A stretch of DNA of 64,000 nt from an uncultured Alphaproteobacteria bacterium (GCA_947085295.1 CAMTVX010000028.1:26148-90147); one strand, 5' to 3'. Positions 1-29,183 are shown, counted from the stretch's first letter. Program-made: numbers and translations. Notes: generated from the sequence alone by a model not told the origin.

Positions 1-1412
1 AACCCCGATTCTTCCCACGCATAATTGCTTAGCCCGTTGGCTGGGGCGCGCATATGCGTTACGCGCGGTGGATACATATCGCGCAGCAACACATTGGGCG
101 TTCGCCCCTGCTGCGCGCGCCGCCACATTTCTGCGCATACTGGATCGGCCTTCAAAAATTTCGCATCCGGGACATAATCCCCGGGGCCATCGGCGGCATG
201 CAGGGCCACATCAATACCCCCGGCATGCAGCGCCCGCGCAAATTCACGATTGACCAGGGCCAGGCTATAGCTGCTGTCAAATGGTCCTTCGATGCGGATT
301 TCCGGCGATGTTTCCTGCCTTGCCGATGGATGCCTATTCACCGCCATGCCAATGGATTCAAGAAATCCAGCCAGCGCATCGCGCAGCGTCTGGCGTTCGA
401 AGCGCAGTAAATTCTGGCGTTGGGCCAGCAAAATACGCCGGCGCAAAATGGGTTCATCCGCCAGCACCCTGAGCAGTGCCGCCGTCTGCGCATGGTCCTT
501 GCGCGACAATAATAAACCGCCCTGACCAATGGTGTCGGCAATGGTCGTGCTGTTATAGGCAATGACCGGCACATCATGCGCCATCGCCTCGATCAGCGGC
601 ATGCCAAATCCTTCATGCTCGCTCATGGATACATAGACATCTGCCGTCTGAAAAATCGCAGACAGACTTTCATCGGAAATTTTTCCGGTAAATTCGACGC
701 TATCGCCAAGATGCAGTTCGGCGCACATACGTTGCAGACGCGCAAGATATTCCTGCGACGAAACATCGCCGGCCAGTATCAGGCGCACGGGCACATCCAT
801 ACGGCGACGCAGATGCGAAAATATCGAAATTAAATCATGCTGGCATTTATTTTCTGAAATGCGCCCGACAAAAACCATATTATAGACGCCATCCAGACGC
901 GCCATTAAGGCTTTGTCAGCGGGAGCCTTGCGTACACGGTCAATATTCACGAGCAGCGGAATTGTAATTGCACCCGCATATCCGTGCTGCAACAGCTCTT
1001 CTGTGTTAAAGGGGGAATCCCCGATGGCCCCAATAAAGCGGCCACGCCATTTCGCAAGCTGTTCCCTGCCAATTTCCGAATAGCGGCGCATGGGACTGCC
1101 AACGGGAAAAAATTCGGCAGGCGTAATATTATGATAAATCAGCGCCAGACGGCTTTGCAGCGCCTCTACCCAGGCGCCATGATTATGCCCCAGTGAATGA
1201 TGCAACAGCAGAAGCTGGTCCGGCGCATCGGGATACGCTTCTATCGGCTGCAACTCCGCCGTTAATTCGGACGCAATCTGCGCGCAGTAAATTTCTGACG
1301 CAAATCCCAGTTCGCGCAAAAGTTCACGAATGAAAAGCATCGAATTGGTTACGCCATCGCCATAGGCGGAACCCACATGAAACTGATGAATGGCGCGCGG
1401 GTTCAATGACAC
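1..1412 (-). CDS. Glycosyltransferase family 4 protein with two tandem GT4 modules (WbdA-like glycan polymerase). It is 5'-complete and its 3' part runs past the left edge of the window. It is absent from the ORF track because it has no stop codon inside the window.
   Basis: Manual reverse-complement translation from ~1412 downward gives ...HQFHVGSAYGDGVTNSMLFIRELLRELGF.... This is followed by the GT4 C-terminal hallmark SEHEGFGMPLIEAMAHDVPVIAYNSTTIADTIG, and then a second GT4-like N-terminal module (...IRIEGPFDSSYSLALVNREFARAL...) that continues beyond coordinate 1. Candidate GTG/TTG starts at 1404-1418 sit directly after the TGA stop of the upstream methyltransferase. Confidence 0.7.
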   Translation of the reverse strand, partial: MSLNPRAIHQFHVGSAYGDGVTNSMLFIRELLRELGFASEIYCAQIASELTAELQPIEAYPDAPDQLLLLHHSLGHNHGAWVEALQSRLALIYHNITPAEFFPVGSPMRRYSEIGREQLAKWRGRFIGAIGDSPFNTEELLQHGYAGAITIPLLVNIDRVRKAPADKALMARLDGVYNMVFVGRISENKCQHDLISIFSHLRRRMDVPVRLILAGDVSSQEYLARLQRMCAELHLGDSVEFTGKISDESLSAIFQTADVYVSMSEHEGFGMPLIEAMAHDVPVIAYNSTTIADTIGQGGLLLSRKDHAQTAALLRVLADEPILRRRILLAQRQNLLRFERQTLRDALAGFLESIGMAVNRHPSARQETSPEIRIEGPFDSSYSLALVNREFARALHAGGIDVALHAADGPGDYVPDAKFLKADPVCAEMWRRAQQGRTPNVLLRDMYPPRVTHMRAPANGLSNYAWEESG

Positions 1413-1418
1413 GGACAA

Positions 1419-2729
1419 TCAGGCCTTTCGCGCCCAGATGGCATAATCCATCGGTCCATACAGCAGCCTGTTCAGGCGCATTGCAACGGCATCGTCACCC
1501 TGCAACTTCTGCGCCTCGTCCGCCTCGTGCAGATAAATCACTTCGGCATTCAAAAATCCGCGCTGTTCCACCATGAAACGTGAAACCGATGGCGGCAATG
1601 GGGCCCGGTGCGTGGGATCGTTCCAGAACGTACTCGCACCCACAATCAGATTTTCCGGATTGGGCGTTTCAAACAGAATGAACCCACCCGGGGTCAACAC
1701 CCGATTAGCTTCGTCAATAATGCGGATTAAATCATCCAGCGCCAGATGCTCTATAATGTGAAAACCTGTCAGGCCCGCAAGGCTTGCGTCCGGCAGGCTT
1801 TGCAAATGCGCCAGCGCCTCTGCTTCACGCACATCAAGATTGGCTGTGCGCGCATCCGCGACAAATACGCTGTTCAGATCAATGCCGTACGCCTTAATGC
1901 CGCTTTCTGCCAGCAATTCAATCCACTCGCCACGTCCGCACCCAATATCCAGAACCGGCAAATGTGTCGCTGCAACTGACATGCGATCCATATAAACTTC
2001 AAGTCGGCTTTTGATCTGTTCGCGGCTTCCACGAAATGCCGCCTCGAACGCCGCGTAATAGGAATCCAGCGCATCCGTGCGCGCTGGCATGGTGACGCCA
2101 ACAGCCGCTGCCCCGGCACCTGACTGCAATGCCGGTGCTGCCAGCGCAGCCGTAAGTCTGCGTTGCTGAAAAACCATCTCTGAACGATTTTCGGCACTGC
2201 GCCTTTTTTCTTCGTCCACTTCCTGACGAAGCGCCGTGGTATGCGCAAGATTAAGTTCCTGGGCCACTTTCAAACGCTGTTCGACAAAACTCATTTCCTG
2301 ACGCAATTCATCCAGACGCGCATTTACCTCACCCAGACGGGCATTGGCCTCACCCAGACGCGCATTAAAACGATGCTCGGCCGCGCCAAGTTCGCGAACT
2401 GTCATTTCAAGACGCCCGCGCGTTTCATGCACCAGCGCCAGACTTTTCAGCCAGCGCAATCCATAACCAAGATAAGGCACGGCCAGCAGCCGCGCACCAA
2501 TCTGTCTTTGCCGTTGCCACTGATTAAGCATTGCCATCGCAGAGCCTATAACGGGTATGCCGCGCAGACGCATCTTCAGCGCCAACAGGGCCGATGTCTT
2601 ATAACCTGATGCCAATTGGCCACCTGCTGTCAATGCGGGAACGCCATGCTGTTCGGGTTGCAGCATTTCAACAGCGATACGCCGTTCCAGTGCGCCATAA
2701 TCTATGTCGGGGTTGTTGGCCTCGATCAT
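1419..2729 (-). CDS. Class I SAM-dependent methyltransferase with an N-terminal coiled-coil region. It is a candidate glycan chain-terminating/modifying enzyme, WbdD-like in role but with the reverse domain order.
   Basis: The ORF track gives 1419..2774. The SAM-binding motif VLDIGCGRGEWIELL is present. The coiled-coil segment contains the heptad-like tandem repeat NARLGEANARLGEVNARLDELRQE. Met16 at 2727-2729 forms an ATGA overlap with the wzt stop, so the shorter start is preferred. Confidence 0.8.
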   Translation of the reverse strand: MIEANNPDIDYGALERRIAVEMLQPEQHGVPALTAGGQLASGYKTSALLALKMRLRGIPVIGSAMAMLNQWQRQRQIGARLLAVPYLGYGLRWLKSLALVHETRGRLEMTVRELGAAEHRFNARLGEANARLGEVNARLDELRQEMSFVEQRLKVAQELNLAHTTALRQEVDEEKRRSAENRSEMVFQQRRLTAALAAPALQSGAGAAAVGVTMPARTDALDSYYAAFEAAFRGSREQIKSRLEVYMDRMSVAATHLPVLDIGCGRGEWIELLAESGIKAYGIDLNSVFVADARTANLDVREAEALAHLQSLPDASLAGLTGFHIIEHLALDDLIRIIDEANRVLTPGGFILFETPNPENLIVGASTFWNDPTHRAPLPPSVSRFMVEQRGFLNAEVIYLHEADEAQKLQGDDAVAMRLNRLLYGPMDYAIWARKA

Positions 2730-3961
2730 GGCGCTGTCACGGCGATTTTGTGCAGGCTTGGTTCCAGCCTGCACAAGCCATCAAAATGTGGTCCTGAATA
2801 GCCGGCCACTTCGAATTGCAACAGATTATCGCACCAATGATAGCAATCCGTAAGGTGGTTATCCTTATCGTGCAATGCGGCCGTTAGCGTATAAAGGCCC
2901 GGCCCAAGATTCATCGCCATGCGAATTGAAAAACTGATGCGTTCGCCTGCTTCAAATGACAAAGGATAGCCAAGAAAATAGGTGTTGGTCCCGTATATAT
3001 CCTGCCCCAGACGGTCACGTATCAAAAACCCAAGCGTCACCGACTGCATCGCCCTGGTTGCCGCTAGATCAAAAACAAAATCGGCGACTTCACCAGAGGC
3101 GAATATCTGGCTGCCGGATATCTGTCCGGTGACTTTCGCCCCACGGATACTCACAACGCCGGAACCATAGCCGCGCGCGATTTCAGTATCGTTGGCAACC
3201 GGCGCTTGCGGTTGCTGGTGCTGCAGGGATGGGGCTACCTCATCCAGATCTGCAATCAACCGGTAATAATAATTCACTGCCTCTTCGGGCGTACCGGAGA
3301 AAACCGTTTTGCCTTCTTCCAGAACCATTGCCGTGTCACACAGAACCTTGACCGCATTCATATCGTGCGAAACAAATAATATCGCGCCCCCGCCAGCGCG
3401 AAATTCCTTGATGCGCTTCATGCATTTTTGCTGAAAATGCGCATCGCCAACGGAAAGCGCCTCGTCCACCACAAGACATTTCGGGTTGGCGTGGATGGCA
3501 ATAGAAAATGCCAGGCGCATCGTCATGCCGGATGAATAGGTGCGCACTGGATGGTGGATGACATCGCCCAATTCGCTGAAATCCACAATGGCCTGACGCT
3601 GTTGCGCCACCTCTGCCTGCGTCATGCCAAGCAGCGCCGCGTTGAAGGCGATATTATCGTAACCGGTCAATTCCGGATTGAACCCGGTACCCAATTCCAA
3701 CAGGCCTGTCACGCGCCCGGACAGCGTAACGCTGCCCTGATCTGGCAGGATGACCCCCATTACCAGTTTGAGCAGTGTTGATTTTCCCGCGCCATTGCGG
3801 CCAATCACCCCCAGCACCTGCCCTGCTTCAAGATTGATGCTGATATCCTGAATCGCCAGCTTTTCTTCATGCAGCTTGCGGCGGAAAATCAGTTCACGCA
3901 GCCGGTCGCTATGGCGCAGATAGATCCGGTAATACTTGCTTACATGGTCAACCCTGATCAT
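2726..3961 (-). CDS. wzt: ABC transporter ATP-binding protein, Wzt-like, with a ~170-aa C-terminal extension (putative glycan-terminus-binding domain).
   Basis: Walker A motif GRNGAGKST, LSGG-type signature and Walker B are present. An extra C-terminal beta-rich domain follows the nucleotide-binding domain. The gene sits directly after an ABC-2 permease and before a glycosyltransferase/methyltransferase. Confidence 0.8.
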   Translation of the reverse strand: MIRVDHVSKYYRIYLRHSDRLRELIFRRKLHEEKLAIQDISINLEAGQVLGVIGRNGAGKSTLLKLVMGVILPDQGSVTLSGRVTGLLELGTGFNPELTGYDNIAFNAALLGMTQAEVAQQRQAIVDFSELGDVIHHPVRTYSSGMTMRLAFSIAIHANPKCLVVDEALSVGDAHFQQKCMKRIKEFRAGGGAILFVSHDMNAVKVLCDTAMVLEEGKTVFSGTPEEAVNYYYRLIADLDEVAPSLQHQQPQAPVANDTEIARGYGSGVVSIRGAKVTGQISGSQIFASGEVADFVFDLAATRAMQSVTLGFLIRDRLGQDIYGTNTYFLGYPLSFEAGERISFSIRMAMNLGPGLYTLTAALHDKDNHLTDCYHWCDNLLQFEVAGYSGPHFDGLCRLEPSLHKIAVTAP

Positions 3962-3981
3962 GGTAACCCTGCCCCAACCGA

Positions 3982-4752
3982 TTAAATCGCATCGCGAATC
4001 TGGTGTTCGCTATGCGACAGAAGCCAGAGTATGCCACCTGCCATAAGGACGCTTCCAGCCAGCAACTGCATTATGTTTCCCATGTCCGGCATCGCGCCAT
4101 AAACAAAAATCTGATGATATTCACGCACAAACCACCATGCAGGATTGAACGCCTGAATGGCCTGCATGAAATGGGGCACGGAATCAATGGTGTAAACAAT
4201 GGGCACCATCCAGAACCATAACATGGTCACGACCCCGACCATTTCGCGAATGTCGCGCAGAAACACCATCAGAATGGCCCCGATCAGGCCAATTGAAAAA
4301 GCCATGAGCTGCTGACAGATAATCAATAGCGGCAACGCCAGCAAACCCGCAGACAGCGGAACCGACAATGCCAGACTCAAAAGGATAAACAGGCCAAGGG
4401 TGCAGATCAGGGTGATCCCTTCCACAATCGGAATATGGATCGCAATGAGGTTCAGGCTGAGCGGGACTTTGCTGAGTATGGCGCGCTTGTCAAAGAACAC
4501 GGTGGTCATGCGCGCAATAGTGCTGGCAAATGCGGTCCAGGGCAAAATTCCCGAAACCAGATAGATGCCATAGCCATATGTACCGGACTGCGTTCCCGGC
4601 AGGCGTGGGCCTATCAACCCCCCAAATATCACAACAAATATAAGGATTTGCAGCATCGGTGTCAGCAGCAGCCAGCCCCTGCCAAGTGCAACACCAGAAT
4701 AGCGGTCAGAAAAATCCTGCCTGACAAAGTGCCATAATAAAGCAAGGTTCAT
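3982..4752 (-). CDS. wzm: ABC-2 family polysaccharide export permease (Wzm-like).
   Basis: A 256-aa protein with six predicted TM helices. It is the first gene of the operon, 20 nt upstream of wzt. Confidence 0.75.
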   Translation of the reverse strand: MNLALLWHFVRQDFSDRYSGVALGRGWLLLTPMLQILIFVVIFGGLIGPRLPGTQSGTYGYGIYLVSGILPWTAFASTIARMTTVFFDKRAILSKVPLSLNLIAIHIPIVEGITLICTLGLFILLSLALSVPLSAGLLALPLLIICQQLMAFSIGLIGAILMVFLRDIREMVGVVTMLWFWMVPIVYTIDSVPHFMQAIQAFNPAWWFVREYHQIFVYGAMPDMGNIMQLLAGSVLMAGGILWLLSHSEHQIRDAI

Positions 4753-5059
4753 AGGAGAATCATCACCATTTTTGCCTTGTTACTGATATAAGGGGCGGTC
4801 TCGGGCGTTCTGACGGCACCTGACAGGCGGGAAAGCACTGTTGTTGCGCTTTCCTACAGTTCTGCAACCACCATGTCAAAGCTCTTGCTTTTTAACGCTC
4901 CCGGTCCATATAAGCAGCGACAAAAGCAGCGTCTGCCCTAATTGCGCTGCAATTTCTTGCAGATATCCCCAATGGTTGATATTTTGTTAACCTTTATTTG
5001 CGCCACTCAAGCTACGCTGCCCGAGAGGGCGAATCGGCTAAAGGATTGAAAGTATCGCC

Positions 5060-6805
5060 ATGAAAGGCAAAGAACAGTCGGAACTGGCCCAGGTTCTTGG
5101 CAAGTCCCGCTCCGCATTTATCGGCGCTGGCGTTTTCAGCTTTTTTATCAATCTGCTGATGCTGGTGTCGCCACTCTACATGTTGCAGATTTATGACCGG
5201 GTGCTGGCCAGCCGGAACGAGACCACTTTGTGGGTATTGACCCTTGTCGCGGTGTTCCTGATTGTTGTCTATGCCGCACTGGAAACCATGCGTTCGCGTG
5301 TGCTGGTGCGCATCAGCGGACAGATGGACAGCCTGTTGAACGCCCGGGTTTTTACCGCTTTGTTCAAATCCGCCGTGCGTGGGCCGGGGGGCGGATCCGG
5401 CCAGGCCATCCGGGATCTGGATTCGGTGCGCGACTTTTTGACCGGACAGGGGCTGTTTGCGTTTTTTGACGCGCCATGGATGCCGCTTTACCTGGCGGCG
5501 ATCTTCCTGATTGATCCCCTATTGGGCTGGGTGGCGACGGCGGGGGGTGTGACATTATTCGGACTTGCCGTGCTCACCGAAATTGCCACGCGCGATACAC
5601 TCAGTGAAGCAAGTGTCGCAAATATGCGCGCCGGGCATTTTGTTGAGGTCAGCCTGCGCAATGTCGAAGCGATTGAGGCGATGGGCATGGTCCCCGCCAT
5701 GCTCAAGCGCTGGCAGGGTCGGCGCGCCAAAATGCTGCAATTGCAGTCGCTGGCCAGCGACCGTGCGGGTGTCATTACGGCCTTGTCCAAATTCACACGC
5801 GTTGTATTGCAAATCGCCATTCTGGGCTTTGGCGCCTATCTGGTGATCCATGATCAAATCACGGCTGGTCTGATGATCGCCGCATCCATTATGATGGGCC
5901 GCGCTCTGGCGCCTGTGGAAATCGCGGTTGGTAGCTGGAAGCATTTTCTGACGGCCCGCAGTTCTTATGACCGCCTGAATGCCTTGCTCAAGGCCGTCCC
6001 CCCCCAACGTGACTTTATGCACCTGCCACCGCCGCTTGGCATTCTACAGGTGGAACAGGCCATTGTTGTGCCACCCGGCGCCACCGTGCCCGCGCTGAAG
6101 GGCGTGGGGTTCAATGTGGCCGCTGGCGATATTGTTGGCATTATCGGTCCCAGCGCTGCGGGAAAATCCACACTGGCGCGCTTGCTGGTTGGCGTTTGGC
6201 CAGCTTATGCCGGCAAGGTGCGCATTGATGGCGCCGACATTATGACCTGGGACCGTGAGCGCCTTGGCCCCTATATGGGCTATCTGCCGCAGGATGTTGA
6301 ATTGTTCGAGGGCACCATTGCCGAGAATATCGCCCGCTTTGGCGAGGTGGATGCGGATCAGGTAATTCTGGCAGCACAGCGCGCCGGGGTGCATGAGTTG
6401 ATACTCAAACTGCCCGCAGGATATGACACACAGATCGGGCCGGGTGGCCAAACGCTTTCCGGTGGCCAGCGCCAGCGCGTGGGTCTTGCGCGGGCATTAT
6501 ATGGCGACCCGGCGATTATCGTGCTGGATGAGCCCAACTCCAATCTGGATAATGATGGCGAAGCGGCACTGGCACGAACCGTTGCCGATCTGAAAGCGCG
6601 CAAGCGTACAACACTGGTAATTACGCACCGCCCCAGCCTGCTGGCGTCGGTTGACTATATTATGGTGATGCGCGAAGGATTAATCGAAAAATTTGGTCCG
6701 CGAGATGAGATTCTGGGTCAATATCTGCGTCCCGCTGCCGTGCCCAGCACGCCTGCCGAACCGGAACCCAACAGAGGCGGCGTAGCGGTGGTAAATCCGG
6801 CATGA
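5060..6805 (+). CDS. prtD: Type I secretion system ABC transporter (PrtD/AprD family; permease-ATPase without a C39 peptidase domain).
   Basis: The N-terminus FIGAGVFSFFINLLMLVSPLYMLQIYDRVL is typical of T1SS ABC exporters. It has a C-terminal nucleotide-binding domain with GPSAAGKST, LSGGQRQR and IVLDEPNSNLD. Confidence 0.85.
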   Translation: MKGKEQSELAQVLGKSRSAFIGAGVFSFFINLLMLVSPLYMLQIYDRVLASRNETTLWVLTLVAVFLIVVYAALETMRSRVLVRISGQMDSLLNARVFTALFKSAVRGPGGGSGQAIRDLDSVRDFLTGQGLFAFFDAPWMPLYLAAIFLIDPLLGWVATAGGVTLFGLAVLTEIATRDTLSEASVANMRAGHFVEVSLRNVEAIEAMGMVPAMLKRWQGRRAKMLQLQSLASDRAGVITALSKFTRVVLQIAILGFGAYLVIHDQITAGLMIAASIMMGRALAPVEIAVGSWKHFLTARSSYDRLNALLKAVPPQRDFMHLPPPLGILQVEQAIVVPPGATVPALKGVGFNVAAGDIVGIIGPSAAGKSTLARLLVGVWPAYAGKVRIDGADIMTWDRERLGPYMGYLPQDVELFEGTIAENIARFGEVDADQVILAAQRAGVHELILKLPAGYDTQIGPGGQTLSGGQRQRVGLARALYGDPAIIVLDEPNSNLDNDGEAALARTVADLKARKRTTLVITHRPSLLASVDYIMVMREGLIEKFGPRDEILGQYLRPAAVPSTPAEPEPNRGGVAVVNPA

Positions 6806-8232
6806 GTTTACAGAATATTGCGGTCCGTCTGGGTCTTCACCAGGAAGGACAGGATACTTTTAATTTCAAATCCGTATTCGATAACGCCGTGCAGCGTGTG
6901 CAGGAGATGTTTGCGCGTTCGGATCAGGAAGGCGCTGACACCAGCGCGCAGACAGACACACGTCGGCCGCTGGTGGTTGGCGGCATCATTATCGTGGTGA
7001 CATTTTTCGGGTTCGGCCTGTGGGCGGCGATTGCGCCCATCGACAGCGCCGCCATTGCCCCCGGCTTTCTGACGGTGCAGTCAAGCCGGCGCACCATCCA
7101 GCATCTTGAAGGCGGCATCGTACAGGAAATTTTTGCCAAAGACGGCATGACAGTAAAAGCCGGCGATGTATTGATCCGCCTGGACGACACCCGCGCCAAG
7201 GCGCAGACAGACATTCTTCTGGCCGATCTGCATTCACAGCTTGCCACCGAAGCGCGCCTGCTGGCGGAACGCGACGGCCTTGCGGCCCCCGTTTTTCCAG
7301 AGGAGCTGCTGAAAAACCAGTCCAATGCAACGATTACCGCAATTCTTGCCGGCCAGAAAAATGTATTCGACACCCGCATCAACGCGCTTTCCGGGCAGAA
7401 ATCCATTTTGCAGCAGCGCGTCGGGCAGTTTGATGAACAGATATCCGGCCTGCGCGCGCTGGTAACCGCAAAGGGTACCCAGGCACGTCTTATCAAAGAG
7501 GAATTGAAGGATTTATCCGGCCTGCTGGAGCGTGGCTACGTCACCAAAACCCGCGTTCTTGCGCTGGAGCGTGAAGAGGCGCGCCTTGAAGGCGAACGCG
7601 CCGAACATATCGCTGCCATCGCGCGTTCCGAACAGGGTATTGGCGAATCCAAACTGCAAATTTTTCAGTTGGAAAAATCCCGCCAGGAAGAAATCGCCCG
7701 TGAATTGCGCGATGTTCAGGCCAAAATAACCGAACTGCGCGAACGCATGGTCGCCGCCAGCGACATGCTGCGCCGCATCGATATTGTCGCGCCGGTTTCT
7801 GGTACGATCATGGATCTGGCCGTACATACCGCCGGCGGGGTCATCGGGCCGGGTGTGCCCTTGATGGATATTGTGCCATTGAATGATGTATTGGTGGTCG
7901 AGGTGCACATTAATCCAATCGACATCGACACCGTCCGCCCTGGCAGCGAAGTCGCCCTGCGTATCAGCACAGTTGATTCCCGCAAAACTCCTGTGATCAA
8001 TGGGGTTCTGGAGACCATTTCAGCCGACCGCACCGTAGAACAACGCACGGGTATGGCATATTACAAGGGGCGCGTCATCATACCTACTGCACAGCGCGAA
8101 CGGCTTGGCACACTGACCCTGCGCAGTGGCATGCAGGTAGAAGCACTGATCAATCGTGGTGAACAGACAGCCCTGCAATATGCGCTGAAGCCATTGACCG
8201 AAGCCTTCGCCAAATCCTTCCGCGAACATTAG
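6802..8232 (+). CDS. Type I secretion periplasmic adaptor (HlyD/PrtE family membrane fusion protein).
   Basis: One N-terminal TM helix, a long coiled-coil region and a C-terminal beta-barrel. The 4-nt overlap with the upstream ABC gene indicates translational coupling. Confidence 0.85.
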   Translation: MSLQNIAVRLGLHQEGQDTFNFKSVFDNAVQRVQEMFARSDQEGADTSAQTDTRRPLVVGGIIIVVTFFGFGLWAAIAPIDSAAIAPGFLTVQSSRRTIQHLEGGIVQEIFAKDGMTVKAGDVLIRLDDTRAKAQTDILLADLHSQLATEARLLAERDGLAAPVFPEELLKNQSNATITAILAGQKNVFDTRINALSGQKSILQQRVGQFDEQISGLRALVTAKGTQARLIKEELKDLSGLLERGYVTKTRVLALEREEARLEGERAEHIAAIARSEQGIGESKLQIFQLEKSRQEEIARELRDVQAKITELRERMVAASDMLRRIDIVAPVSGTIMDLAVHTAGGVIGPGVPLMDIVPLNDVLVVEVHINPIDIDTVRPGSEVALRISTVDSRKTPVINGVLETISADRTVEQRTGMAYYKGRVIIPTAQRERLGTLTLRSGMQVEALINRGEQTALQYALKPLTEAFAKSFREH

Positions 8233-8246
8233 GGCCGATAAAAGCC

Positions 8247-9656
8247 ATGCCGGTAATTTTTCGCTCTTCCACTTTAGCTGCGCTTGCCCTGCTGGCATGT
8301 GTTCCATCGGCGCAGGCGGCGCAATCGCTGGACGAGGCGATGGCGGCGGCGTATCGCAGCAATCCACAATTACAGGCCGAACGCGCCCGTCAGCGCGCCA
8401 CAGACGAAGGCGTTGCCCGCGCGCTTGGCGGCTTTCGCCCAACCATCGTCGTCACCGGCGAAGCAGGCCGCGCGGTGGACGAATTTCGCACACGCAACAC
8501 ATTCTCTGGCGCAACGAATGTCACAGATGTTAATCGCGGGCCGCGCACCTATCAGGCGCAGATGCGTCAGCCGATCTATGACGGGGGTCAGGCAATAAAT
8601 GATTACCGGCGTTCAGAAGCCATTGTCGAGCAGGGCCGCGCGCGTCTCATTTCGGCCGAACAGGCTGTGCTTGCCGAAGCTGCGCGCGCCTATGTCGATG
8701 TCGCGCGTGATTTCCGTGTGGTTCAGCTTACCCGCGATAATATCGAATATTTAACCGAGGTAGAAAAAGCCATTCGCGCCCGCTTTGCCGTCAAGGACGT
8801 CACCAATACCGATGTGGCGCAGGCTGATGCGCGGCTGGCGCGCGGCCTTGCCGATAATCAGGCGGCCGAAGGCGCATTGGCCCGGTCGCGTTCCGCCTAT
8901 GCGCGGGTGGTCGGCGAAGAAACCGATGGCGCGCTGGATATGCCGCCCCCGCCCGATAAATTGCCCGATACGCTGGACGCAGCGCTGGGTGATGTGGAAA
9001 ACAACCCTGAACTGCGCTCAGCGCGCTTTGTAGAAGTTGCCGCCCGTGCCCAGATCGGCGTCGTACGCAGCGGCCTGCTACCGGATTTATCGCTGCGCGG
9101 GGCCGTGCGCCGGCAGGACGAGGCCGACCAGAAACATTTCGAACGCGACACCGCCGAAGTGCTGGTGCAATTATCCGTACCGATTTACGAGGGTGGCATA
9201 TCAGCCGCGCAAACCCGCGAAGCCAAGCATATCGCCAGCCAGCGGCAGCTTGAGCTGGAACAGGCCACCCGCGCCGCCACCGACGCAGTACGCGCCGCCT
9301 GGGAGGGGCTGATCAGTTCACGCGCCCGCATTACCTCGATCCGCGAAAATGTTACGGCGGCAGAACTTGCCCTGGTCAGCGTCACCGAAGAAGCCAAGGT
9401 CGGCGCGCGCACCGTGCTGGACCGGTTGAACGCCCAGCAGGAACTGCTCGACGCCAGCGTCGCACTGCTGCGCGCCCAGCGTGATGAATTTATCGCCAGC
9501 AATGATCTGCTGACCGCCATCGGCAAAATGACCGCCATCAACCTTGAACTGCCCGTGGAACATTACGATCCCGTGGCAAATTACGCCGATACCCGTGGCC
9601 GCTTCTTCGGCACCGGCATTTCCCCCATCGAAAATCCTGCGCCCGAAGTGAAATAG
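8247..9656 (+). CDS. tolC: TolC family outer-membrane channel for type I secretion.
   Basis: Signal peptide MPVIFRSSTLAALALLACVPSAQA. Two internal repeats of the TolC fold. It lies immediately after the adaptor gene. Confidence 0.85.
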   Translation: MPVIFRSSTLAALALLACVPSAQAAQSLDEAMAAAYRSNPQLQAERARQRATDEGVARALGGFRPTIVVTGEAGRAVDEFRTRNTFSGATNVTDVNRGPRTYQAQMRQPIYDGGQAINDYRRSEAIVEQGRARLISAEQAVLAEAARAYVDVARDFRVVQLTRDNIEYLTEVEKAIRARFAVKDVTNTDVAQADARLARGLADNQAAEGALARSRSAYARVVGEETDGALDMPPPPDKLPDTLDAALGDVENNPELRSARFVEVAARAQIGVVRSGLLPDLSLRGAVRRQDEADQKHFERDTAEVLVQLSVPIYEGGISAAQTREAKHIASQRQLELEQATRAATDAVRAAWEGLISSRARITSIRENVTAAELALVSVTEEAKVGARTVLDRLNAQQELLDASVALLRAQRDEFIASNDLLTAIGKMTAINLELPVEHYDPVANYADTRGRFFGTGISPIENPAPEVK

Positions 9657-10127: not shown

Positions 10128-10462
10128 CGCCGGTCAATATTGCCCTGTGGGGATTTATACTGCTTGGCAGCATCATACTTGGCTTTGCAGCGATTGTGCT
10201 GTGGAAGATTGGCTCCGGCGAAATTGATATAACCCGTCTGATCAGTGAGCCCGCTACTGACCCCAATAATGCGGGTGAAAATCAAAAGGGCAGCCTGTCG
10301 CGATTTCAGTTCCTGATCTTTACCTTCGTCATTGCGGGCCTGTACACCATCCTGTGCATTGAAAGCGGAACCCTGATCGAAATTCCGGATAGCGTGTTGC
10401 TGTTACTGGGCATCAGCGGCGGCAGCTTTCTTGTTTCCAAAGGCATCAGCGCCAATAAATGA
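10124..10462 (+). CDS. Small integral membrane protein (hypothetical), a tandem paralog of the previous ORF.
   Basis: About three TM helices. ATGA overlap with the preceding ORF. Same architecture (TM, polar loop, TM, TM). Confidence 0.5.
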   Translation: MTPVNIALWGFILLGSIILGFAAIVLWKIGSGEIDITRLISEPATDPNNAGENQKGSLSRFQFLIFTFVIAGLYTILCIESGTLIEIPDSVLLLLGISGGSFLVSKGISANK

Positions 10463-10484
10463 GCTTCTGGAGTGGATCTGTAAA

Positions 10485-11315
10485 ATGCAGCGTATACTGA
10501 TCATTATTGCATTAATCGCCTTCGCCACACCGTCAATGGCTGCGGACCCCACGGATATCACCCCGTGCGAAAGCATGTTTGCAGACACCGGCATGCCATC
10601 CTATCGCGGGGATTTTGACGAAGATCATCATAGTTTGCGCTGCCGCCTGGGCTATGTGCTTTCGCATAATAACGAAACCCGCATTCCTGACTGGGTGTTG
10701 CAGGAATTGCCCGACGGTCAGATATCCGGCGCGGCAAAGCGCAAAGACAATTTCAAAGCGGACGACAGCCTGCCCCCGGAAACCCGTGCAGAAAAAAGCG
10801 ACTATAAGGGCAGCGGCTTTGATCAGGGCCATCAGGCGCCCGCCGCTGACTTCAAATCAAGCCAGGAGATGACGGATGAGAGTTTTTTACTCTCGAACAT
10901 GGCCCCGCAAGTCGGCCTGAGTTTCAACCGTGGAATATGGGCGCATCTGGAAGAGCAGGTGCGCGACTGGCTTGACACCCGCAGCCGCCTGATCGTCATT
11001 ACCGGCCCGGTCTATGACGCGCCAGATCTGAACGTGCCGAAAGTGCCTGCCATTCCAAAACCCGGCGCCGGGCAGGCGGAACCTGAACGGGTTGCCGTTC
11101 CTGCCGCCTTCTACAAAATCGTCTATGATCCGGAAATCGGGCGCGCTATTGCATTCCTGATGCCGAACAAGAAATTGCCGAAACGCAAACCAGCAGAATT
11201 TCTTGCCTCCATCGCAGATATAGAAGAGCGCACCGGGCTGGACTTCTTCACCACGCTGACCAAACGCCGCCAGCGCACCCTTGAAAGCAACGTCTCGCCC
11301 ATGTGGGAGCATTAA
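10485..11315 (+). CDS. Secreted DNA/RNA non-specific endonuclease (Serratia/NucA family, beta-beta-alpha-Me).
   Basis: Sec signal peptide MQRILIIIALIAFATPSMA. DRGH-type catalytic motif DQGHQAPAADF, with the downstream metal-ligand Asn in LSNMAPQ. The ORF track start (10431) was trimmed to the Met that begins the signal peptide. Confidence 0.8.
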   Translation: MQRILIIIALIAFATPSMAADPTDITPCESMFADTGMPSYRGDFDEDHHSLRCRLGYVLSHNNETRIPDWVLQELPDGQISGAAKRKDNFKADDSLPPETRAEKSDYKGSGFDQGHQAPAADFKSSQEMTDESFLLSNMAPQVGLSFNRGIWAHLEEQVRDWLDTRSRLIVITGPVYDAPDLNVPKVPAIPKPGAGQAEPERVAVPAAFYKIVYDPEIGRAIAFLMPNKKLPKRKPAEFLASIADIEERTGLDFFTTLTKRRQRTLESNVSPMWEH

Positions 11316-13597: not shown

Positions 13598-15091
13598 ATG
13601 GAAATAGACGAGGAGATACGAAAGATTAGAAATAGACTCCGACTTTACAGCGGGCAGTCTATTGTTGCTCAAGCATTACGCGTACTTCATTGCCAGTTTC
13701 CCAGCCCGCTCGAAGACCTAAAAGCGGCGCCCTGGCTCACCATGCTTATTGTGAAATGGGCGGTGCAGGACAAATTAGTTTTTCAATCGATTGGAGAAGT
13801 CATTACTTCTCAAGAATTTGATGCTTTGCGCAATTTGCTCTGGAACATTCAAGGGAAAATCTCAAAAAGCGAAAACACACCAAACATCCATGCGATGCTA
13901 CGAACCATGCTTCACCCCCAGGTTCAGTTTCAACGGAGAGAGACCTGGGGGTTTCTGAGGTGGCCTGCATTGATCGCACAACTTGATATGAGCCATCCAA
14001 ATCGCACTCAGTTTGAAAACACATTCTTGATTTCACCCGAGACGTATATGGACTTGAGTTTTGCGGTCTATACTCAGGTTATAAATGGAAAAAAGACATT
14101 ACCGCCAGATTACTTTGCTTCTATCGAGGGGTACTATGGTAATAGCATCTCTACCTTCTTGGAACTTTTTGTGCGTGATTTTTCATCTCTTAGACGGGAA
14201 CTTCGAGAGAACGTCAAACGCCCAATGCGAGGAAGGATAGAATTTTTTGAATTTCCCTACCTTCAGCGATTTCCCATCTTTCGCACACCCGACGGAGTTC
14301 TGAATTTTTGGCATCGCAGCGTTTTTGCACGCGGCATGGAGGATGCAGTACACCTTCGCTTGTCAAATCTTGGCGCTAGCTACACAGAACCTTTCAGTCA
14401 AATTTTCGAAGGCTACGTCTTAGGTCTTCTAAATGATAATAAGATTCTATTCTTTGGGGAAGATGAGATCCGGAAAACTTTCAGCAGGAGAGACTCCACA
14501 GTCGAAGCAATTATTGATTGTGACGACTGCAATATCTTTATCGAAGCAAAAATGAGTTTATTCTGGGATGATGTACTGCTTGATGACGACCCCCAGCAGG
14601 TTTTCAATAAAACAGAAAACGTGAGGAAAGCCATTCAACAGGGATGGCAGGCAAGTGATTTACTTCGTAGTGGACGGGGACAACTTGGTGCGTGCGCAAA
14701 CAAGGTGCAGGATTTTCTCCTGGTTGTCACCAGTCGGCAGCTAAATATAAGCGGTGGGAATATGCTCAATAATATATACCCAGAAGGATCCTTTGAAGAG
14801 GTCCTTCCTTTTAATAAGAGACGATATCTGCCGCCAGAAAATATCTTCGTTCTTTCGATCGAGGACTTTGAGCGGCTAGCCGGCTGCCACCGGCTGGGAG
14901 AAGTTGAACTAGCTCCCCTTCTCAAGAAGGCGGCTATGGCCAATAACGATCCGATAACCTCTAAGATGTTTTTTTCAGATTTCCTCCAGGAATATCGAAT
15001 GCATGAGCGGAGCATACCTCGTCTGATTCAGCTAGCCAGGGATGAAGCAACAGCAAGGTTATCTAGCGCGCTAGAGCAAGATGAGATTTGA
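13598..15091 (+). CDS. Hypothetical protein, 497 aa, AT-rich orphan gene with no confident family assignment. It has a candidate PD-(D/E)xK-like nuclease core.
   Basis: The start lies 21 bp after the uvrB stop, preceded by a GGTGG RBS. Coding GC is ~45% against ~60% in the flanks. The segment EAIIDCDDCNIFIEAKMS fits a D...(E)xK restriction-endonuclease-fold signature. No ABC, helicase, HEPN or other common motif was seen. Confidence 0.55.
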   Translation: MEIDEEIRKIRNRLRLYSGQSIVAQALRVLHCQFPSPLEDLKAAPWLTMLIVKWAVQDKLVFQSIGEVITSQEFDALRNLLWNIQGKISKSENTPNIHAMLRTMLHPQVQFQRRETWGFLRWPALIAQLDMSHPNRTQFENTFLISPETYMDLSFAVYTQVINGKKTLPPDYFASIEGYYGNSISTFLELFVRDFSSLRRELRENVKRPMRGRIEFFEFPYLQRFPIFRTPDGVLNFWHRSVFARGMEDAVHLRLSNLGASYTEPFSQIFEGYVLGLLNDNKILFFGEDEIRKTFSRRDSTVEAIIDCDDCNIFIEAKMSLFWDDVLLDDDPQQVFNKTENVRKAIQQGWQASDLLRSGRGQLGACANKVQDFLLVVTSRQLNISGGNMLNNIYPEGSFEEVLPFNKRRYLPPENIFVLSIEDFERLAGCHRLGEVELAPLLKKAAMANNDPITSKMFFSDFLQEYRMHERSIPRLIQLARDEATARLSSALEQDEI

Positions 15092-21818: not shown

Positions 21819-22325
21819 ATGGCTGACATAAATATTTTATCGTCCAATGCGGGACCGGGGAGTGCCAGCGAATCGGCCAAAATTGGCGAGGCCATCGAAT
21901 TGTTGTTTTTTGCCTATCGCGATTTTACCAGTGATCCCGATGTCATACTGGCGCATTCTGATTATGGCCGTGCGCATCACCGGATATTGCATTTCGTGGG
22001 GGCCTATCCCGGCATTAATGTTGCGCAATTACTCAGCATACTGCGCATCACCAAACAGAGTCTGGGACGGGTGCTGAAACAATTACTCAAACAGGGATTT
22101 GTCGAGCAGCGCCCCGGCAACCATGACCGACGTCAGCGCCTGCTGTTTCTGACCGATAAAGGCAAGGCGTTCGAGGCGCGGCTTTCCACACCCCAGCAGG
22201 AACGGGTACGGCGCGCCTTTACGGCGGCAGGGCCCGATGCGGTTGCTGGCTATCTACAGGTGCTGGAACATCTGATTAATGAATCGGAACGTAAAGTTAT
22301 TCTTGATGCGATCAAGCGTGGATAA
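21819..22325 (+). CDS. MarR family transcriptional regulator (PetP-like position, immediately upstream of an OmpR-type response regulator).
   Basis: Winged-HTH MarR pattern (...NVAQLLSILRITKQSLGRVLKQLLKQGFVEQRPG..DRRQRLLFLTDKG). Its stop abuts the next start. Confidence 0.8.
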   Translation: MADINILSSNAGPGSASESAKIGEAIELLFFAYRDFTSDPDVILAHSDYGRAHHRILHFVGAYPGINVAQLLSILRITKQSLGRVLKQLLKQGFVEQRPGNHDRRQRLLFLTDKGKAFEARLSTPQQERVRRAFTAAGPDAVAGYLQVLEHLINESERKVILDAIKRG

Positions 22326-23036
22326 TTGCGAATGAGTGATGCGCGTTTTGAATCAGAAACCAGCGCGCCCCATATTCTGGTGGTGGATGACGACACCCGC
22401 CTGCGCAAACTTTTGCAAAAGTTTCTGATGGAGCATGGCTACCGGGTGACGCTTGCCGCCAGTGCGGCGGAGGCGCGCGCGCGCATGGATGGGCTGGCGT
22501 TTGATCTGACCGTACTGGACGTGATGATGCCGGGGGAAAGCGGGTTGGAACTGACGCAGTTTTTGCGCGGGCGCACCGAAATGCCGGTGCTGCTGTTGTC
22601 TGCGCGATCCGAAACCAATGCGCGGATTGCCGGGCTGGAGGCTGGCGCGGATGATTACCTGGGCAAGCCATTTGAGCCAAAAGAGCTTTTGCTGCGCATC
22701 CAGGCATTGCTGCGGCGCGCGGCAACAGCGACAGAGCCGCCGCTTCGCACCATCCGGCTGGGTGAATGGGAAGCCGATCTGGAGCGCGGCGATCTGCGCA
22801 ACGGCGATATGCTGATCCGGCTTGCGCCGGGTGAGCTGAGCCTTTTACGTCTGTTGGCCGCCAATCCCGGTGTGCCGGTTAGCCGCACCGAACTTTCCGA
22901 ACAAACCGGCGCCGCCCAGGAGCGCACAGTGGATGTGCAGATTACGCGGTTGCGACGCAAGTTTGAACTGGACCCGCGCGCGCCCCGTCATCTGCAAACT
23001 GTGCGCGGACAAGGATATGTGCTTTGGCCGGATTAA
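22326..23036 (+). CDS. OmpR-family two-component response regulator.
   Basis: Receiver domain (ILVVDDD...LDVMMPGESG) plus a C-terminal winged-helix DNA-binding domain. Confidence 0.85.
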   Translation: MRMSDARFESETSAPHILVVDDDTRLRKLLQKFLMEHGYRVTLAASAAEARARMDGLAFDLTVLDVMMPGESGLELTQFLRGRTEMPVLLLSARSETNARIAGLEAGADDYLGKPFEPKELLLRIQALLRRAATATEPPLRTIRLGEWEADLERGDLRNGDMLIRLAPGELSLLRLLAANPGVPVSRTELSEQTGAAQERTVDVQITRLRRKFELDPRAPRHLQTVRGQGYVLWPD

Positions 23037-24355
23037 CTGATCTATGGCCATTAAAAAACCTTTTGCCGAAAGGGCTGTTTGGCCGATCGCTGCTGATCGT
23101 GGTGGCGCCCGTAATTATATTACAGGCCATTGTCACCTATATTTTCTTTGAGCGGCACTGGGACACGGTTACACGGCGGCTGTCCCGCGCCGTGGTGGGA
23201 GAGGTCGCGATGCTGACCGAAACCTACGGTCGGCCGCTTGATGCAGCGACCATGCAGATCGTGAATGCGCAGGCAGCGCGAACCTTTCAACTGGAAGTGG
23301 CTTTTCTGCCGGGTGAAAAACTGCCCGACCCGACAACCGATGAGTCCCTGTTTTCTTCCATGGTGACGCTGAGCGATGAGCTTGCAAAACAGATTACGCA
23401 AAAATTCTGGATTGATACCCATCGATATGGCGATTATCTGGATCTGCGTGTGCAACTCGATCATGGCGTGTTGCGCATTCTGACGCCGCGCAACCGGGTC
23501 ACGTCGCAAACCGCGCATATATTTATTTTATGGATGTTCGGCACTTCACTGGTGCTGCTGACGGTCGCTGTAATCTTTCTGCGCAATCAGGTTCGCCCGA
23601 TTGCACTGCTGGCAGAAGCGGCGGAAGAATTTGGCAAAGGCCGCGAAGTGCCCGATTTCAAGGCGACCGGCGCGACTGAGGTTCGCCAGGCGGCCGCAGC
23701 CTTTCTGGAAATGCGCGACCGTATTGGACGCCAGATTGCCCAACGCACCTTTATGCTGGCGGGCGTCAGCCATGATCTTCGCACCCCATTAACGCGAATG
23801 AATTTACAACTCGCCATGCTTCCTGAAAGCGACGAGATTGAGGCGCTGCGCGCGGACATTCGTGAAATGCAATATATGCTGGATGAATATCTGGCCTTTG
23901 CTGGCGGTCAGGCGGGCGAAGCGGAAATCCAAACGGATATTGGTCAGCTTATCGAAGAAATCGTCGCCGAATACACCAGACGCGGTACACAGATCAATAT
24001 CACATCGGAGCCGGATTTGTTTTTGCCACTGCGGCGCGGAAGCTTCAAACGCTGCATTGTAAATCTGGTCGAGAATGCGCATTCCCACGGCAAACATGTC
24101 GAAATCCACGCGGCCAGAACCGGCGACCATATCGAAATTGCCATTGAAGATGATGGCCCCGGCCTGCCCCCGGATAAATACGAAGACGCATTTGTACCGT
24201 TTCAGCGCTTTGACGATAGCCGTAATCCGGATCGCGCAGGGGTGGGGCTTGGGCTTGCGATTGCCCGCGACATCGCGCGCAGTCACGGCGGCGATATAAG
24301 TCTGGGGCGTTGCAGAACCGGTGGTTTGCGCGCCACTATCCGCATACCCGTATAA
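23024..24355 (+). CDS. Sensor histidine kinase (two TM helices, HAMP, HisKA, HATPase).
   Basis: H-box GVSHDLRTPLTRM and G-boxes DDGPGLP / GVGLGLAI. It overlaps the response-regulator gene by 13 nt. Confidence 0.85.
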   Translation: MAGLTDLWPLKNLLPKGLFGRSLLIVVAPVIILQAIVTYIFFERHWDTVTRRLSRAVVGEVAMLTETYGRPLDAATMQIVNAQAARTFQLEVAFLPGEKLPDPTTDESLFSSMVTLSDELAKQITQKFWIDTHRYGDYLDLRVQLDHGVLRILTPRNRVTSQTAHIFILWMFGTSLVLLTVAVIFLRNQVRPIALLAEAAEEFGKGREVPDFKATGATEVRQAAAAFLEMRDRIGRQIAQRTFMLAGVSHDLRTPLTRMNLQLAMLPESDEIEALRADIREMQYMLDEYLAFAGGQAGEAEIQTDIGQLIEEIVAEYTRRGTQINITSEPDLFLPLRRGSFKRCIVNLVENAHSHGKHVEIHAARTGDHIEIAIEDDGPGLPPDKYEDAFVPFQRFDDSRNPDRAGVGLGLAIARDIARSHGGDISLGRCRTGGLRATIRIPV

Positions 24356-26228: not shown

Positions 26229-26941
26229 AGCCGTCCGCGCAATTGTTTCATAAGCGTTTTTTCCGAATCATCGTATGCTGGCTTGTTGCCATGTTTATCC
26301 GTCTGGTTTGGATGTCGGGTAGATGGCGAACCGTGGGGGCGGAAATACCGTCAGCATTTTGGGACAGCAATCAGCCATTTATTCTGGCCTTTTGGCATGG
26401 ACGCTTGATGATGATGCCCTATTGCTGGCGTCCGGAAAAAGGGATGAACATGCTAATTTCACAGCATCGTGACGGCGAACTTATTGCGCGCACAATCGGC
26501 CATTTTGGTTTGGGTTCGATACGTGGATCAAGCGCCAAACCCGGCAAGCAGGATAAAGGCGGCGGTGGGGCGCTGCGCGCGATGATCAAACAATTGTCAC
26601 GCAATGAATATGTTGGCATCACGCCCGATGGGCCGCGCGGCCCGCGCCAGCGTGTGGGCGATGGCATACTTTCCGTCGCACGACTTTCCGGCGTCCCCAT
26701 AATTCCCGTCAGCTTTGCAACAAAGCGACGCATTCACACCAGAAGCTGGGACCGGTTTTTAATCGCTTTGCCATTTTCCAGTGGCGTATTCGTATGGGGC
26801 AAGCCGCATTATGTGCCGCGCGATGCCGATGCGGACATGCAGGAAAAGGCGCGCCTGATGCTGGAACAGGATCTTAATCGCATTACGGCAGAGGCCGATG
26901 CGCAATGCGGCCATTCACAGTCCGGGCACGAAGCAGCATGA
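26225..26941 (+). CDS. DUF374 / lysophospholipid acyltransferase-like protein commonly found upstream of waaA.
   Basis: 238 aa with an N-terminal TM helix. The conserved neighbourhood is msbA-DUF374-kdtA. ATGA overlap with waaA. Confidence 0.65.
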   Translation: MKPSAQLFHKRFFRIIVCWLVAMFIRLVWMSGRWRTVGAEIPSAFWDSNQPFILAFWHGRLMMMPYCWRPEKGMNMLISQHRDGELIARTIGHFGLGSIRGSSAKPGKQDKGGGGALRAMIKQLSRNEYVGITPDGPRGPRQRVGDGILSVARLSGVPIIPVSFATKRRIHTRSWDRFLIALPFSSGVFVWGKPHYVPRDADADMQEKARLMLEQDLNRITAEADAQCGHSQSGHEAA

Positions 26942-28206: not shown

Positions 28207-29183
28207 TGCGCGCGCCAGAATTCTGGTATCCCTTGACTGGACGAACTGCTGGCCTCCTGCCCTGGCTGCTGGCGCCATTTGCCCTGTGTTACATGTTCGC
28301 TGGCTGGTTACGTGCGGCATTTGCACAGCCCTATCGCGCTGCAATTCCCGTTATCTGTGTCGGCAATCTTACCGCTGGCGGTACGGGAAAAACTCCGGTG
28401 GCGCTGGCGCTGGCGGCGCGCTTGCTGAATGAGGGCGTAAAAGTACATTTTCTTACGCGCGGATATGGTGGCAATATTGCGGGTCCGGTACGCGTTGAGC
28501 CGAACAATCATAACGCGGCGCATGTGGGCGACGAGGCCCTGTTGCTGGTGGGCGTTGCCCCCACCTGGGTGGCGCGCGATCCAAAAGCCGGGGCCAGGGC
28601 AGCGATTTCCGCCGGGGCCGAACTGCTGATTTTGGATGATGGGCTTCAGAACCCATATCTGGTCAAGGATTTATCCATTGCGCTGATAGATGCAGAACGT
28701 GGTTTTGGAAATGGCTGGGTGATCCCGTCCGGGCCATTGCGCGAACCGGTGGCACGTGGCCTTTCCCGCGCCAGCGCGATCATCACCATCGGCGATGGTG
28801 GAAGTTTTTCAGGCTTTGGAAAAACGCAGTTGCGCGCGCACCGGCATATTCTGAGTCCGGATGCCGTAAATGGCAAACGCCTGTATGCGTTTTGTGGTAT
28901 TGGCGCGCCTCAGCAGTTTTTCGATATGCTGCGAAATGCAGGGGCCGATCTGGCTGGCGCGGTGGCATTCCCGGATCATCATCCGTATACGGATGATGAA
29001 ATCAATCAGATTATTTTGAATGCGCTGAAACTGGACGCAACCCCCATTACCACAGAAAAAGACCGGGTCCGTCTATCCGCGCAGATGCGCCAGAAAATAC
29101 CTGCGATTGCGATGGAAATACGTTTTTGCGATGAACCGGCATTGGCGCGCCTGCTTGAGTCTGTGATACACAGGCCCGCATGA
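28206..29183 (+). CDS. lpxK: Tetraacyldisaccharide 4'-kinase.
   Basis: P-loop VGNLTAGGTGKTP and LpxK family length; ATGA-coupled to waaA. Confidence 0.9.
   Translation: MRAPEFWYPLTGRTAGLLPWLLAPFALCYMFAGWLRAAFAQPYRAAIPVICVGNLTAGGTGKTPVALALAARLLNEGVKVHFLTRGYGGNIAGPVRVEPNNHNAAHVGDEALLLVGVAPTWVARDPKAGARAAISAGAELLILDDGLQNPYLVKDLSIALIDAERGFGNGWVIPSGPLREPVARGLSRASAIITIGDGGSFSGFGKTQLRAHRHILSPDAVNGKRLYAFCGIGAPQQFFDMLRNAGADLAGAVAFPDHHPYTDDEINQIILNALKLDATPITTEKDRVRLSAQMRQKIPAIAMEIRFCDEPALARLLESVIHRPA

Follow-up and report, generated by a model that had tools for sequence, protein, structure and literature searches.

The control of chain length in O antigens exported by ATP-binding cassette (ABC) transporters is understood from a handful of enterobacterial chain terminators. 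In Escherichia coli O9a and Klebsiella pneumoniae O3, WbdD is a soluble terminator held by a coiled coil, alongside a multi-module glycosyltransferase family 4 (GT4) polymerase (WbdA) and a Wzt that reads the cap (PMC3482155, PMC11231755); in O9a its catalytic part, which includes a kinase, is followed by the coil and then by a C-terminal region that binds the membrane and WbdA. WbdD of E. coli O8 and K. pneumoniae O5 is a methyltransferase only and places a methyl cap, again with a carbohydrate-binding Wzt (PMC11231755, PMC3560663). The WbdA of these two systems has three GT4 modules, and in O8 the coil is C-terminal of the methyltransferase and the polymer is made of mannose only. Coiled-coil terminators have also been described for the ABC-dependent O-polysaccharides (O-PS) of K. 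pneumoniae O7 (ORF6), O4 (ORF7) and O12 (WbbB) and of E. coli O101/O162 (a methyltransferase) (PMC11231755, PMC13168486), several of them fused to the polymerase. The coil follows the terminating module in WbdD of O9a and O8, WbbB, O4 ORF7, O7 ORF6, Citrobacter youngae ORF5 and the O101/O162 methyltransferase (PMC11231755, PMC11127046, PMC13168486, PMC3482155), and a coiled coil together with a carbohydrate-binding Wzt is a hallmark of this termination strategy (PMC11231755, PMC11127046). Here, we analysed a 64,000-nt stretch of DNA from an uncultured Alphaproteobacteria bacterium (GCA_947085295.1 CAMTVX010000028.1:26148-90147; hereafter the window, meaning the stretch at its full length), in which positions 1-4752 carry wzm, wzt, a gene for a methyltransferase with a coiled coil and the 5′ part of a GT4 glycosyltransferase gene.

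Three other described systems are relevant. The TET (transport, elongation, termination) operon of Pseudomonas syringae comprises wzm, wzt, a gene for an S-adenosylmethionine (SAM) methyltransferase named 'wbdD' and a two-domain GT4 gene named 'wbdA', beside gmd and rmd, and Tn5 insertion into wzm, wzt, wbdD or gmd gives mutants with rough lipopolysaccharide (LPS) that has lost the O-chain (PMC7820976). The same paper makes no mention of a coiled coil (PMC7820976). In Aquifex aeolicus, the O antigen is a polymer of D-rhamnose and D-mannose capped with 3-O-methyl-Rha or 3-O-methyl-Man, and the Wzt residues that hold the cap have been structurally defined, in a paper that mentions neither a methyltransferase nor WbdD (PMC9445017). 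Finally, the common polysaccharide antigen (CPA) locus of P. aeruginosa, a D-rhamnan ABC-transporter locus, encodes the SAM methyltransferases PA5457 and PA5459. We considered these as the closest analogues and rejected them, as they lack the interaction and coil regions and showed no WbdD-like regulation of chain length (PMC3560663).

Against this background, the window locus is an ordinary O-antigen-type operon and a new example of a common, biochemically uncharacterised type of terminator. The operon itself is not new, as the P. syringae TET operon has the same order of wzm, wzt, SAM methyltransferase and multi-domain GT4; compared with the characterised prototypes, however, the terminator is a variant in which the domain order is reversed and the methyltransferase is unrelated. 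The cluster is probably the export-and-termination core of an ABC-transporter-dependent polysaccharide, most likely an LPS O-PS built from GDP-mannose-derived sugars (D-rhamnose and/or D-mannose). Its components are:

1-1412, minus strand: GT4 glycosyltransferase, 5′ part (470 codons), putative polymerase, leaving the window at position 1
1419-2729, minus strand: coiled-coil methyltransferase gene (436 aa), putative chain terminator, matching class I SAM methyltransferase families
2726-3961, minus strand: wzt, ATPase subunit with a C-terminal carbohydrate-binding domain (411 aa; Pfam ABC_tran and Wzt_C)
2765-3175, minus strand: carbohydrate-binding (cap-recognition) domain of Wzt (residues 263-399; Wzt_C E value 2.9e-30)
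3982-4752, minus strand: wzm, ABC-2 type permease of the glycan exporter (256 aa; Pfam ABC2_membrane E value 2.7e-12)
4753-5059, no strand: intergenic region from which wzm and a type I secretion ABC gene diverge, read from the sequence

The minus strand of this region is occupied by four tightly packed genes, and both their order (wzm, wzt, methyltransferase, glycosyltransferase) and the assignment to an ABC-transporter-dependent glycan operon, as put forward in an earlier reading of the sequence (the original prediction), are borne out by the open reading frames (ORFs) and by strong family matches for all four genes. The claim that all junctions are coupled stands in part. The wzt and methyltransferase genes overlap in an ATGA (ATG 2729-2727, TGA 2728-2726), whereas wzm and wzt are separated by 20 nt and do not overlap. 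A TTG directly after the methyltransferase stop, proposed as the glycosyltransferase start, was rejected because it is not conserved (TAC in the related loci L004 and L005); the conserved start is the GTG at 1412-1410, 6 nt past the methyltransferase stop, which yields MSLNPRAIHQFH, with MSPNPRA as its counterpart in L004 and MSFRPRA, read from an ATG, in L011. The methyltransferase can likewise be read as a 451-aa ORF from an upstream GTG; this candidate was rejected because the N-terminus conserved among homologues, MIEANNPDID, points to the ATG at 2729. The operon promoter presumably lies within 4753-5059. No sigma-70 consensus sites were found inside this interval, where site counts were those of the background, and the promoter-like and terminator-like sites returned by the regulatory scan were not clearly above background. 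Neither the operon leader nor 4753-5059 contains the enterobacterial ops element GGCGGTAG.

Wzm and Wzt have the features expected of a glycan exporter, with an ABC-2 permease gene adjacent to that of the ATPase. Wzm returned weak NCBIfam matches to KpsM and galactan Wzm, and its orthologues in the same position in the related loci (L001-L011) are 73-92 % identical. Wzt is closest among solved structures to that of A. aeolicus (8DKU/7K2T; end-to-end alignment, E value 3.4e-120). Its C-terminal domain scores 105.6 bits for Wzt_C against a Pfam cut-off of 30.4. In isolation, this domain matches the A. aeolicus carbohydrate-binding domain (6O14/8DKY; E value about 1e-28), to which it is about 45-50 % identical by visual inspection of the aligned part, and there is a weak match to another Wzt carbohydrate-binding domain of solved structure (5HNO; E value 0.017).

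Seven of the eight side chains named as cap contacts in A. aeolicus (PMC9445017) are kept in the aligned window Wzt: Y233, R302 (R315 in the window protein), D308 (D321), N313 (N326), H350 (H364), H355 (H369) and W362 (W376). F305 is replaced conservatively by L318. The sole contact of the eight that is not conserved is V380, which is D394 in the window (2782-2784); in A. aeolicus, this residue is contributed by the adjacent protomer and touches the cap sugar at C6 (PMC9445017). The domain therefore appears to retain a pocket for a modified non-reducing terminal sugar, which it is predicted to bind, and the most similar characterised Wzt pocket reads an O-methyl cap. The original prediction had made its capping proposal depend on a Wzt C-terminus that resembles O-PS-binding domains, and the Wzt_C identity and the match to the A. 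aeolicus pocket show that it does. As a separate observation, D394 could mean a preference for a C6-hydroxyl (mannose-type) or an otherwise different cap.

The methyltransferase, which has an identical counterpart in the protein collection (P0001), was modelled with AlphaFold2 from 52 homologues (mean predicted local distance difference test (pLDDT) score 83.8). From its C-terminus to its N-terminus, it comprises the following:

1422-2078, minus strand: C-terminal class I SAM-dependent methyltransferase domain, Rossmann-type (residues 218-436)
2139-2471, minus strand: continuous alpha-helix (residues 87-197, 111 residues; AlphaFold2)
2308-2366, minus strand: 21-nt tandem repeat encoding the heptads NARLGEA, NARLGEV and NARLDEL (2.8 copies; Tandem Repeats Finder score 90)
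2472-2591, minus strand: basic/hydrophobic helices with RLRGIPVIG (residues 47-86; AlphaFold2 helices 47-56, 59-75 and 77-83)

In the model, the N-terminus forms a short helix (residues 11-23) followed by a disordered stretch (27-45). The helices at residues 47-83 are rich in Arg/Lys and hydrophobic residues, and residues 47-86 may represent a membrane- or polymerase-proximal anchor. The long helix (87-197) has a pLDDT above 90 over about residues 110-180, and a simple scan of a/d positions placed about residues 99-168, where the coiled-coil signal is strongest, in a single unchanging heptad register, with 75-100 % of the a/d positions hydrophobic; the putative terminator thus carries an extended coiled coil, as do members of the coiled-coil chain-terminator class. 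A disordered Ala/Gly-rich linker (200-216) separates the coil from the methyltransferase domain, within which the Pfam class I SAM methyltransferase matches are confined to residues about 253-360. These data agree with what had been predicted for this protein, namely an N-terminal coiled coil (one helix in one heptad register), a near-perfect tandem NARLGE repeat within it (Tandem Repeats Finder: period 21, 86 % matches) and no kinase domain. No kinase family was matched in Pfam or NCBIfam, and the AlphaFold2 model contains no further globular domain.

The closest solved relative of the catalytic domain is 3DLI, an uncharacterised methyltransferase from Archaeoglobus fulgidus (phmmer E value 9.4e-37; Foldseek E value 3e-24, template modelling (TM) score 0.87). 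WbdD was absent from the phmmer matches to all PDB sequences (E value up to 0.01) and from the Foldseek top 50, suggesting that the window protein is WbdD-like on paper and not a member of the WbdD family.

The coil combines drift in sequence with a conserved or quantised length. Two conserved motifs, RWLKSL and FQQRRL, flank the coil in the alphaproteobacterial clade and are exactly 94 residues apart in 11 lineages; the inner coil of these lineages is 19-59 % identical to that of the window in ungapped comparison, and their methyltransferase domains are 64-85 % identical. Sub-motifs are conserved at shifted positions, so that gains and losses of residues have balanced out. In other lineages, the spacing departs from 94 residues by -7 (three times), +7, -21 and -35, and distances that do not differ by multiples of seven also occur (88, 90, 93, 112 and 116 residues). 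Two proteins that are more than 90 % identical, P0003 and P0122, are exactly one LASTEQK heptad apart, at the place where the window has its NARLGEx repeat. Such drift with constant or heptad-quantised length is the expected signature of a spacer and, at the level of sequence, supports the idea of a ruler.

The coil could instead serve in oligomerisation or as a scaffold docking onto the polymerase or the transporter, with the methyltransferase capping or decorating the glycan and chain length being set by the kinetics of extension, capping and export. The evidence computed here does bear on the coil and not on chain length itself, the P. aeruginosa CPA methyltransferases, when overexpressed, had a weak effect on chain length (PMC3560663), and the shortest family members (390 aa, e.g. 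P0018) yielded no segment with a consistent heptad register at the thresholds applied. A pure docking element would, however, be expected to conserve sequence and not length, which is the reverse of the spacing kept between the motifs flanking this coil, and the many length changes by multiples of seven, which compensate within a protein, are expected of a length-critical spacer. We therefore consider a purely scaffolding coil rather unlikely.

Lineage-specific tandem repeats were also noted in or near the coil of several family proteins (P0016, P0013, P0017, P0060 and P0053), including DARIDGM in six copies and TRDQLHVALDQ in three, and the same set shows a QQPERTES repeat near the N-terminus (alignment A1). 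Repeat-driven change in length thus seems to be recurrent in the family.

The methyltransferase belongs to a very common family, with more than 1,200 homologues in the protein collection and at least 593 confirmed species-level loci in a scan of one genome per species, spread over Alpha-, Beta- and Gammaproteobacteria, Cyanobacteria, Acidobacteria, Bacteroidota, Nitrospirae and others. Throughout the family, the methyltransferase domain is C-terminal (174-187 aa from the GCG motif to the C-terminus) and is preceded by an N-terminal extension of about 130 to about 500 residues. A basic/hydrophobic motif of the form [KRQ]..hPhh[GR], represented by RLRGIPVIG in the window protein, precedes the coil in 148 of 251 members from several phyla, the Pseudomonas and acidobacterial clades among them. 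Residues 1-215, searched against 1.84 billion representatives, gave 16 matches with no sign of the N-terminal module on other catalytic domains: those aligned at the N-terminus, about 400-560 aa long, fit family members, three are short fragments and the rest resemble coiled-coil repeat matches. DUF4214 is present on some of the family's methyltransferases.

Gene context was surveyed in 86 loci (80 diverse species-level loci and 6 of close relatives). The family gene is most often found immediately downstream of wzt, with a GT4 gene next in line: 50 of the 86 loci have wzt within 6 kb, mostly directly upstream on the same strand, and a GT4 gene follows in 59. Several homologues are labelled 'O-antigen chain-terminating methyltransferase' in IMG and carry a generic class I methyltransferase label at NCBI; most members are annotated merely as 'class I SAM-dependent methyltransferase'. 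The family is therefore not new as such, being common and already auto-annotated as a chain terminator by IMG. The 'distinct architecture' of the original prediction holds solely with respect to the biochemically characterised terminators, given the abundance and IMG annotation of the family and the identical gene order in P. syringae.

The window methyltransferase is itself encoded together with a carbohydrate-binding Wzt and the putative polymerase, as in the described terminator class. This context bears on whether the enzyme is a terminator at all or acts on internal repeat residues or a non-glycan substrate, in which case the Wzt domain would read something else or the terminator would be encoded elsewhere. 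The class I fold is generic, its closest solved relative is uncharacterised and the NCBIfam matches all fall far below their cut-offs, as such a role would allow. Against this, translational coupling links the gene to wzt, the association of the family with wzt and GT4 genes extends across phyla, the enzyme is the only modifying enzyme in the five-gene cluster conserved among its relatives (see below), and the Wzt pocket keeps the residues by which the A. aeolicus protein holds a 3-O-methyl sugar (PMC9445017). A role other than chain termination is accordingly very unlikely in our estimation.

The glycosyltransferase gene runs off the window as predicted, and its remainder was deduced from relatives (L001-L011). 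The window holds one full GT4 module (Glycos_transf_1 at residues 181-329, E value 8.6e-32) and the start of a second, and this fragment shares 79 % identity with the first 470 residues of the L004 glycosyltransferase (1112 aa). The description of this protein as a two-module enzyme did not survive the comparison: the relatives' orthologues, including those of L001 and L004, are 1092-1112 aa long and contain three GT4 modules, making them multi-module proteins of the WbdA type. Searches of PDB and NCBIfam for its specificity returned generic GT4 similarity only. In relatives whose methyltransferase is 73-75 % identical, the cluster is a compact wzm-wzt-methyltransferase-glycosyltransferase-gmd array followed by unrelated genes (prfB, class A penicillin-binding protein). 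Their Gmd (GDP-mannose 4,6-dehydratase) scores 434-441 bits against an NCBIfam equivalog cut-off of 415, which points to D-rhamnose or another GDP-6-deoxyhexose as a likely constituent of the polymer.

Taken together, each part of the interpretation in the original prediction (a terminal cap that also controls chain length) that could be checked in silico held, and on that basis it appears supported. In addition, genes for lipid A and 3-deoxy-D-manno-oct-2-ulosonic acid (Kdo) synthesis in the window indicate that the organism makes LPS. Several points nevertheless weigh against an O-PS export-and-termination core as we have described it. For the locus and its close relatives alike, the case is made from homology. 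The methyltransferase domain has no detectable relation to that of WbdD beyond the class I fold, and 3DLI, its only close solved relative, has no assigned substrate. No transmembrane helix is predicted in the methyltransferase, in which no window of residues is hydrophobic enough. The replacement of V380 by Asp in Wzt means that the recognised cap may differ from that of A. aeolicus. The window contains no rmd, manB/C, initiating transferase, adaptor glycosyltransferase or ligase gene, so that the sugar and the final acceptor are guesses. Finally, the methyltransferases of the P. aeruginosa CPA locus showed no WbdD-like behaviour, so that not every O-PS-linked methyltransferase is a ruler-type terminator (PMC3560663).

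If the cluster does act as such a core, the multi-module GT4 enzyme (three modules in relatives) would extend an undecaprenyl-linked chain at the cytoplasmic face of the membrane. The 436-aa methyltransferase would be positioned at the site of elongation through its conserved basic/hydrophobic N-terminal segment, by which it may be anchored to the membrane, and the coiled coil of about 110 residues, presumably oligomeric, would keep the C-terminal SAM-dependent methyltransferase domain away from the membrane. A chain end long enough to reach that domain would be O-methylated, at a position that we infer, as we do the substrate, and elongation would stop. The Wzt carbohydrate-binding domain would then recognise the methylated terminal sugar, and Wzm-Wzt would export capped chains only.

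The putative system resembles those of O9a and O3 in combining a soluble terminator with a coil, a multi-module GT4 polymerase and a Wzt expected to read the cap, but differs from O9a in that an anchor-like segment is followed by the coil and then by the methyltransferase, in the lack of a kinase and in a methyltransferase domain for which no sequence-level relation to that of WbdD was detected. It is closer in chemistry to O8 and O5, where the terminator is likewise a methyltransferase without a kinase and WbdA likewise has three GT4 modules; the coil of O8 is, however, on the other side of the methyltransferase, and the gmd of the window's relatives suggests a 6-deoxyhexose in place of a mannose-only polymer. 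The coiled-coil terminators of O7, O4, O12 and O101/O162 differ in the same respect, their terminating modules being N-terminal of the coil and several being fused to the polymerase, whereas that of the window is C-terminal and the protein is a separate polypeptide. A coil placed before the catalytic domain was absent from the described terminators that we found, although reviews of the field may already note the reversal. With A. aeolicus, the window shares the cap-binding residues of Wzt except for the change of V380 to Asp.

The likeness to P. syringae extends to the terminator. In one P. syringae locus (L087), the gene for a 459-aa family member (P0148) is flanked by a wzt that encodes Wzt_C and by a GT4 gene of two modules, as against three in the window's relatives; a Gmd-like gene and type I secretion genes are close by. 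P0148 shares 76 % identity with a Pseudomonas sp. protein (L048) that is in turn about 39 % identical to window residues 50-430 (E value 2e-67), placing P0148 in the same family, of which the Psa protein IYO_023005 is a candidate member.

These comparisons raise a further possibility, which we put forward tentatively and hold to be less probable than not: that the family represents an independently evolved, inverted counterpart of the WbdD ruler. A methyltransferase unrelated to WbdD would lie distal to the membrane and be held by an N-terminal anchor motif, and the length of the coil would be kept constant or retuned by whole heptads through slippage of 21-nt repeats, of which that at 2308-2366 is an example. 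The modal length of the O-chain could then be changed through repeat number, and the capped rhamnan or mannan may anchor a protein secreted by the conserved type I system next to the cluster. The family shows the same apparent geometry as the enterobacterial prototypes with the parts reversed and an unrelated methyltransferase; if it is a true ruler, the principle would be more general than the prototypes suggest, and perhaps convergent. The heptad-quantised changes in coil length would then also yield a direct prediction that is testable in tractable Pseudomonas members.

The glycan cluster is transcribed divergently from a set of secretion genes identified with Pfam:

5060-9656, plus strand: type I secretion neighbours, comprising an ABC gene (5060-6805), an HlyD/AprE-type gene (6802-8232) and an outer membrane factor gene (8247-9656)

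The divergent arrangement of type I secretion genes and wzm recurs in L001 and L004-L006, and in P. syringae (L087) the type I secretion system lies upstream of the glycan genes on the same strand. This recurring adjacency hints that the glycan anchors a secreted surface protein. A comparable case is Campylobacter fetus, in which a type I system exports an S-layer that attaches to the organism's own LPS and the serotype B O-chain is a D-rhamnan with a 3-O-methyl-D-rhamnose cap.

The same adjacency bears on whether the product is an LPS O antigen or a different glycan exported by an ABC transporter, for example a capsule-like or lipid-anchored polymer to which a type I-secreted S-layer or RTX (repeats-in-toxin) protein is attached. 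Two DUF4214/RTX proteins and a SapC homologue follow the P. syringae cluster, and the presence of DUF4214 on some family methyltransferases is in keeping with a link of this kind. The window itself, on the other hand, encodes no RTX-repeat protein (a search for a type I secretion substrate found no window protein with two or more GGxGxD motifs), and the capsule partners KpsE/D and KpsS/C are missing from the annotated flanking genes. A product other than O antigen seems to us highly improbable. An O antigen can itself be an anchor, so that an O antigen and an anchor for a surface protein are not exclusive readings.

Further along the plus strand, a gene for a DNA/RNA non-specific endonuclease (10431-11315; Endonuclease_NS, E value 1e-49) lies between the outer membrane factor gene and uvrB; in L004-L006, uvrB directly follows the outer membrane factor gene, suggesting that the endonuclease gene has been inserted. 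Past uvrB, a 497-aa ORF (13598-15091, plus strand) has no Pfam match, and the neighbour in the corresponding place in L004 is a pentapeptide-repeat protein. Genes for a MarR-type regulator, an OmpR-type response regulator and a HAMP histidine kinase, in this order (21819-24355, plus strand), lie immediately upstream of the lipid A/Kdo block (24396-30073, plus strand), which comprises an MsbA-like ABC exporter, a DUF374 protein, WaaA, LpxK and an LpxL-like late acyltransferase. A kdsA-type gene (46207-47046, plus strand) follows pyrG, and a protein with paired DUF7946 and DUF7947 is encoded at 40769-41635 (plus strand).

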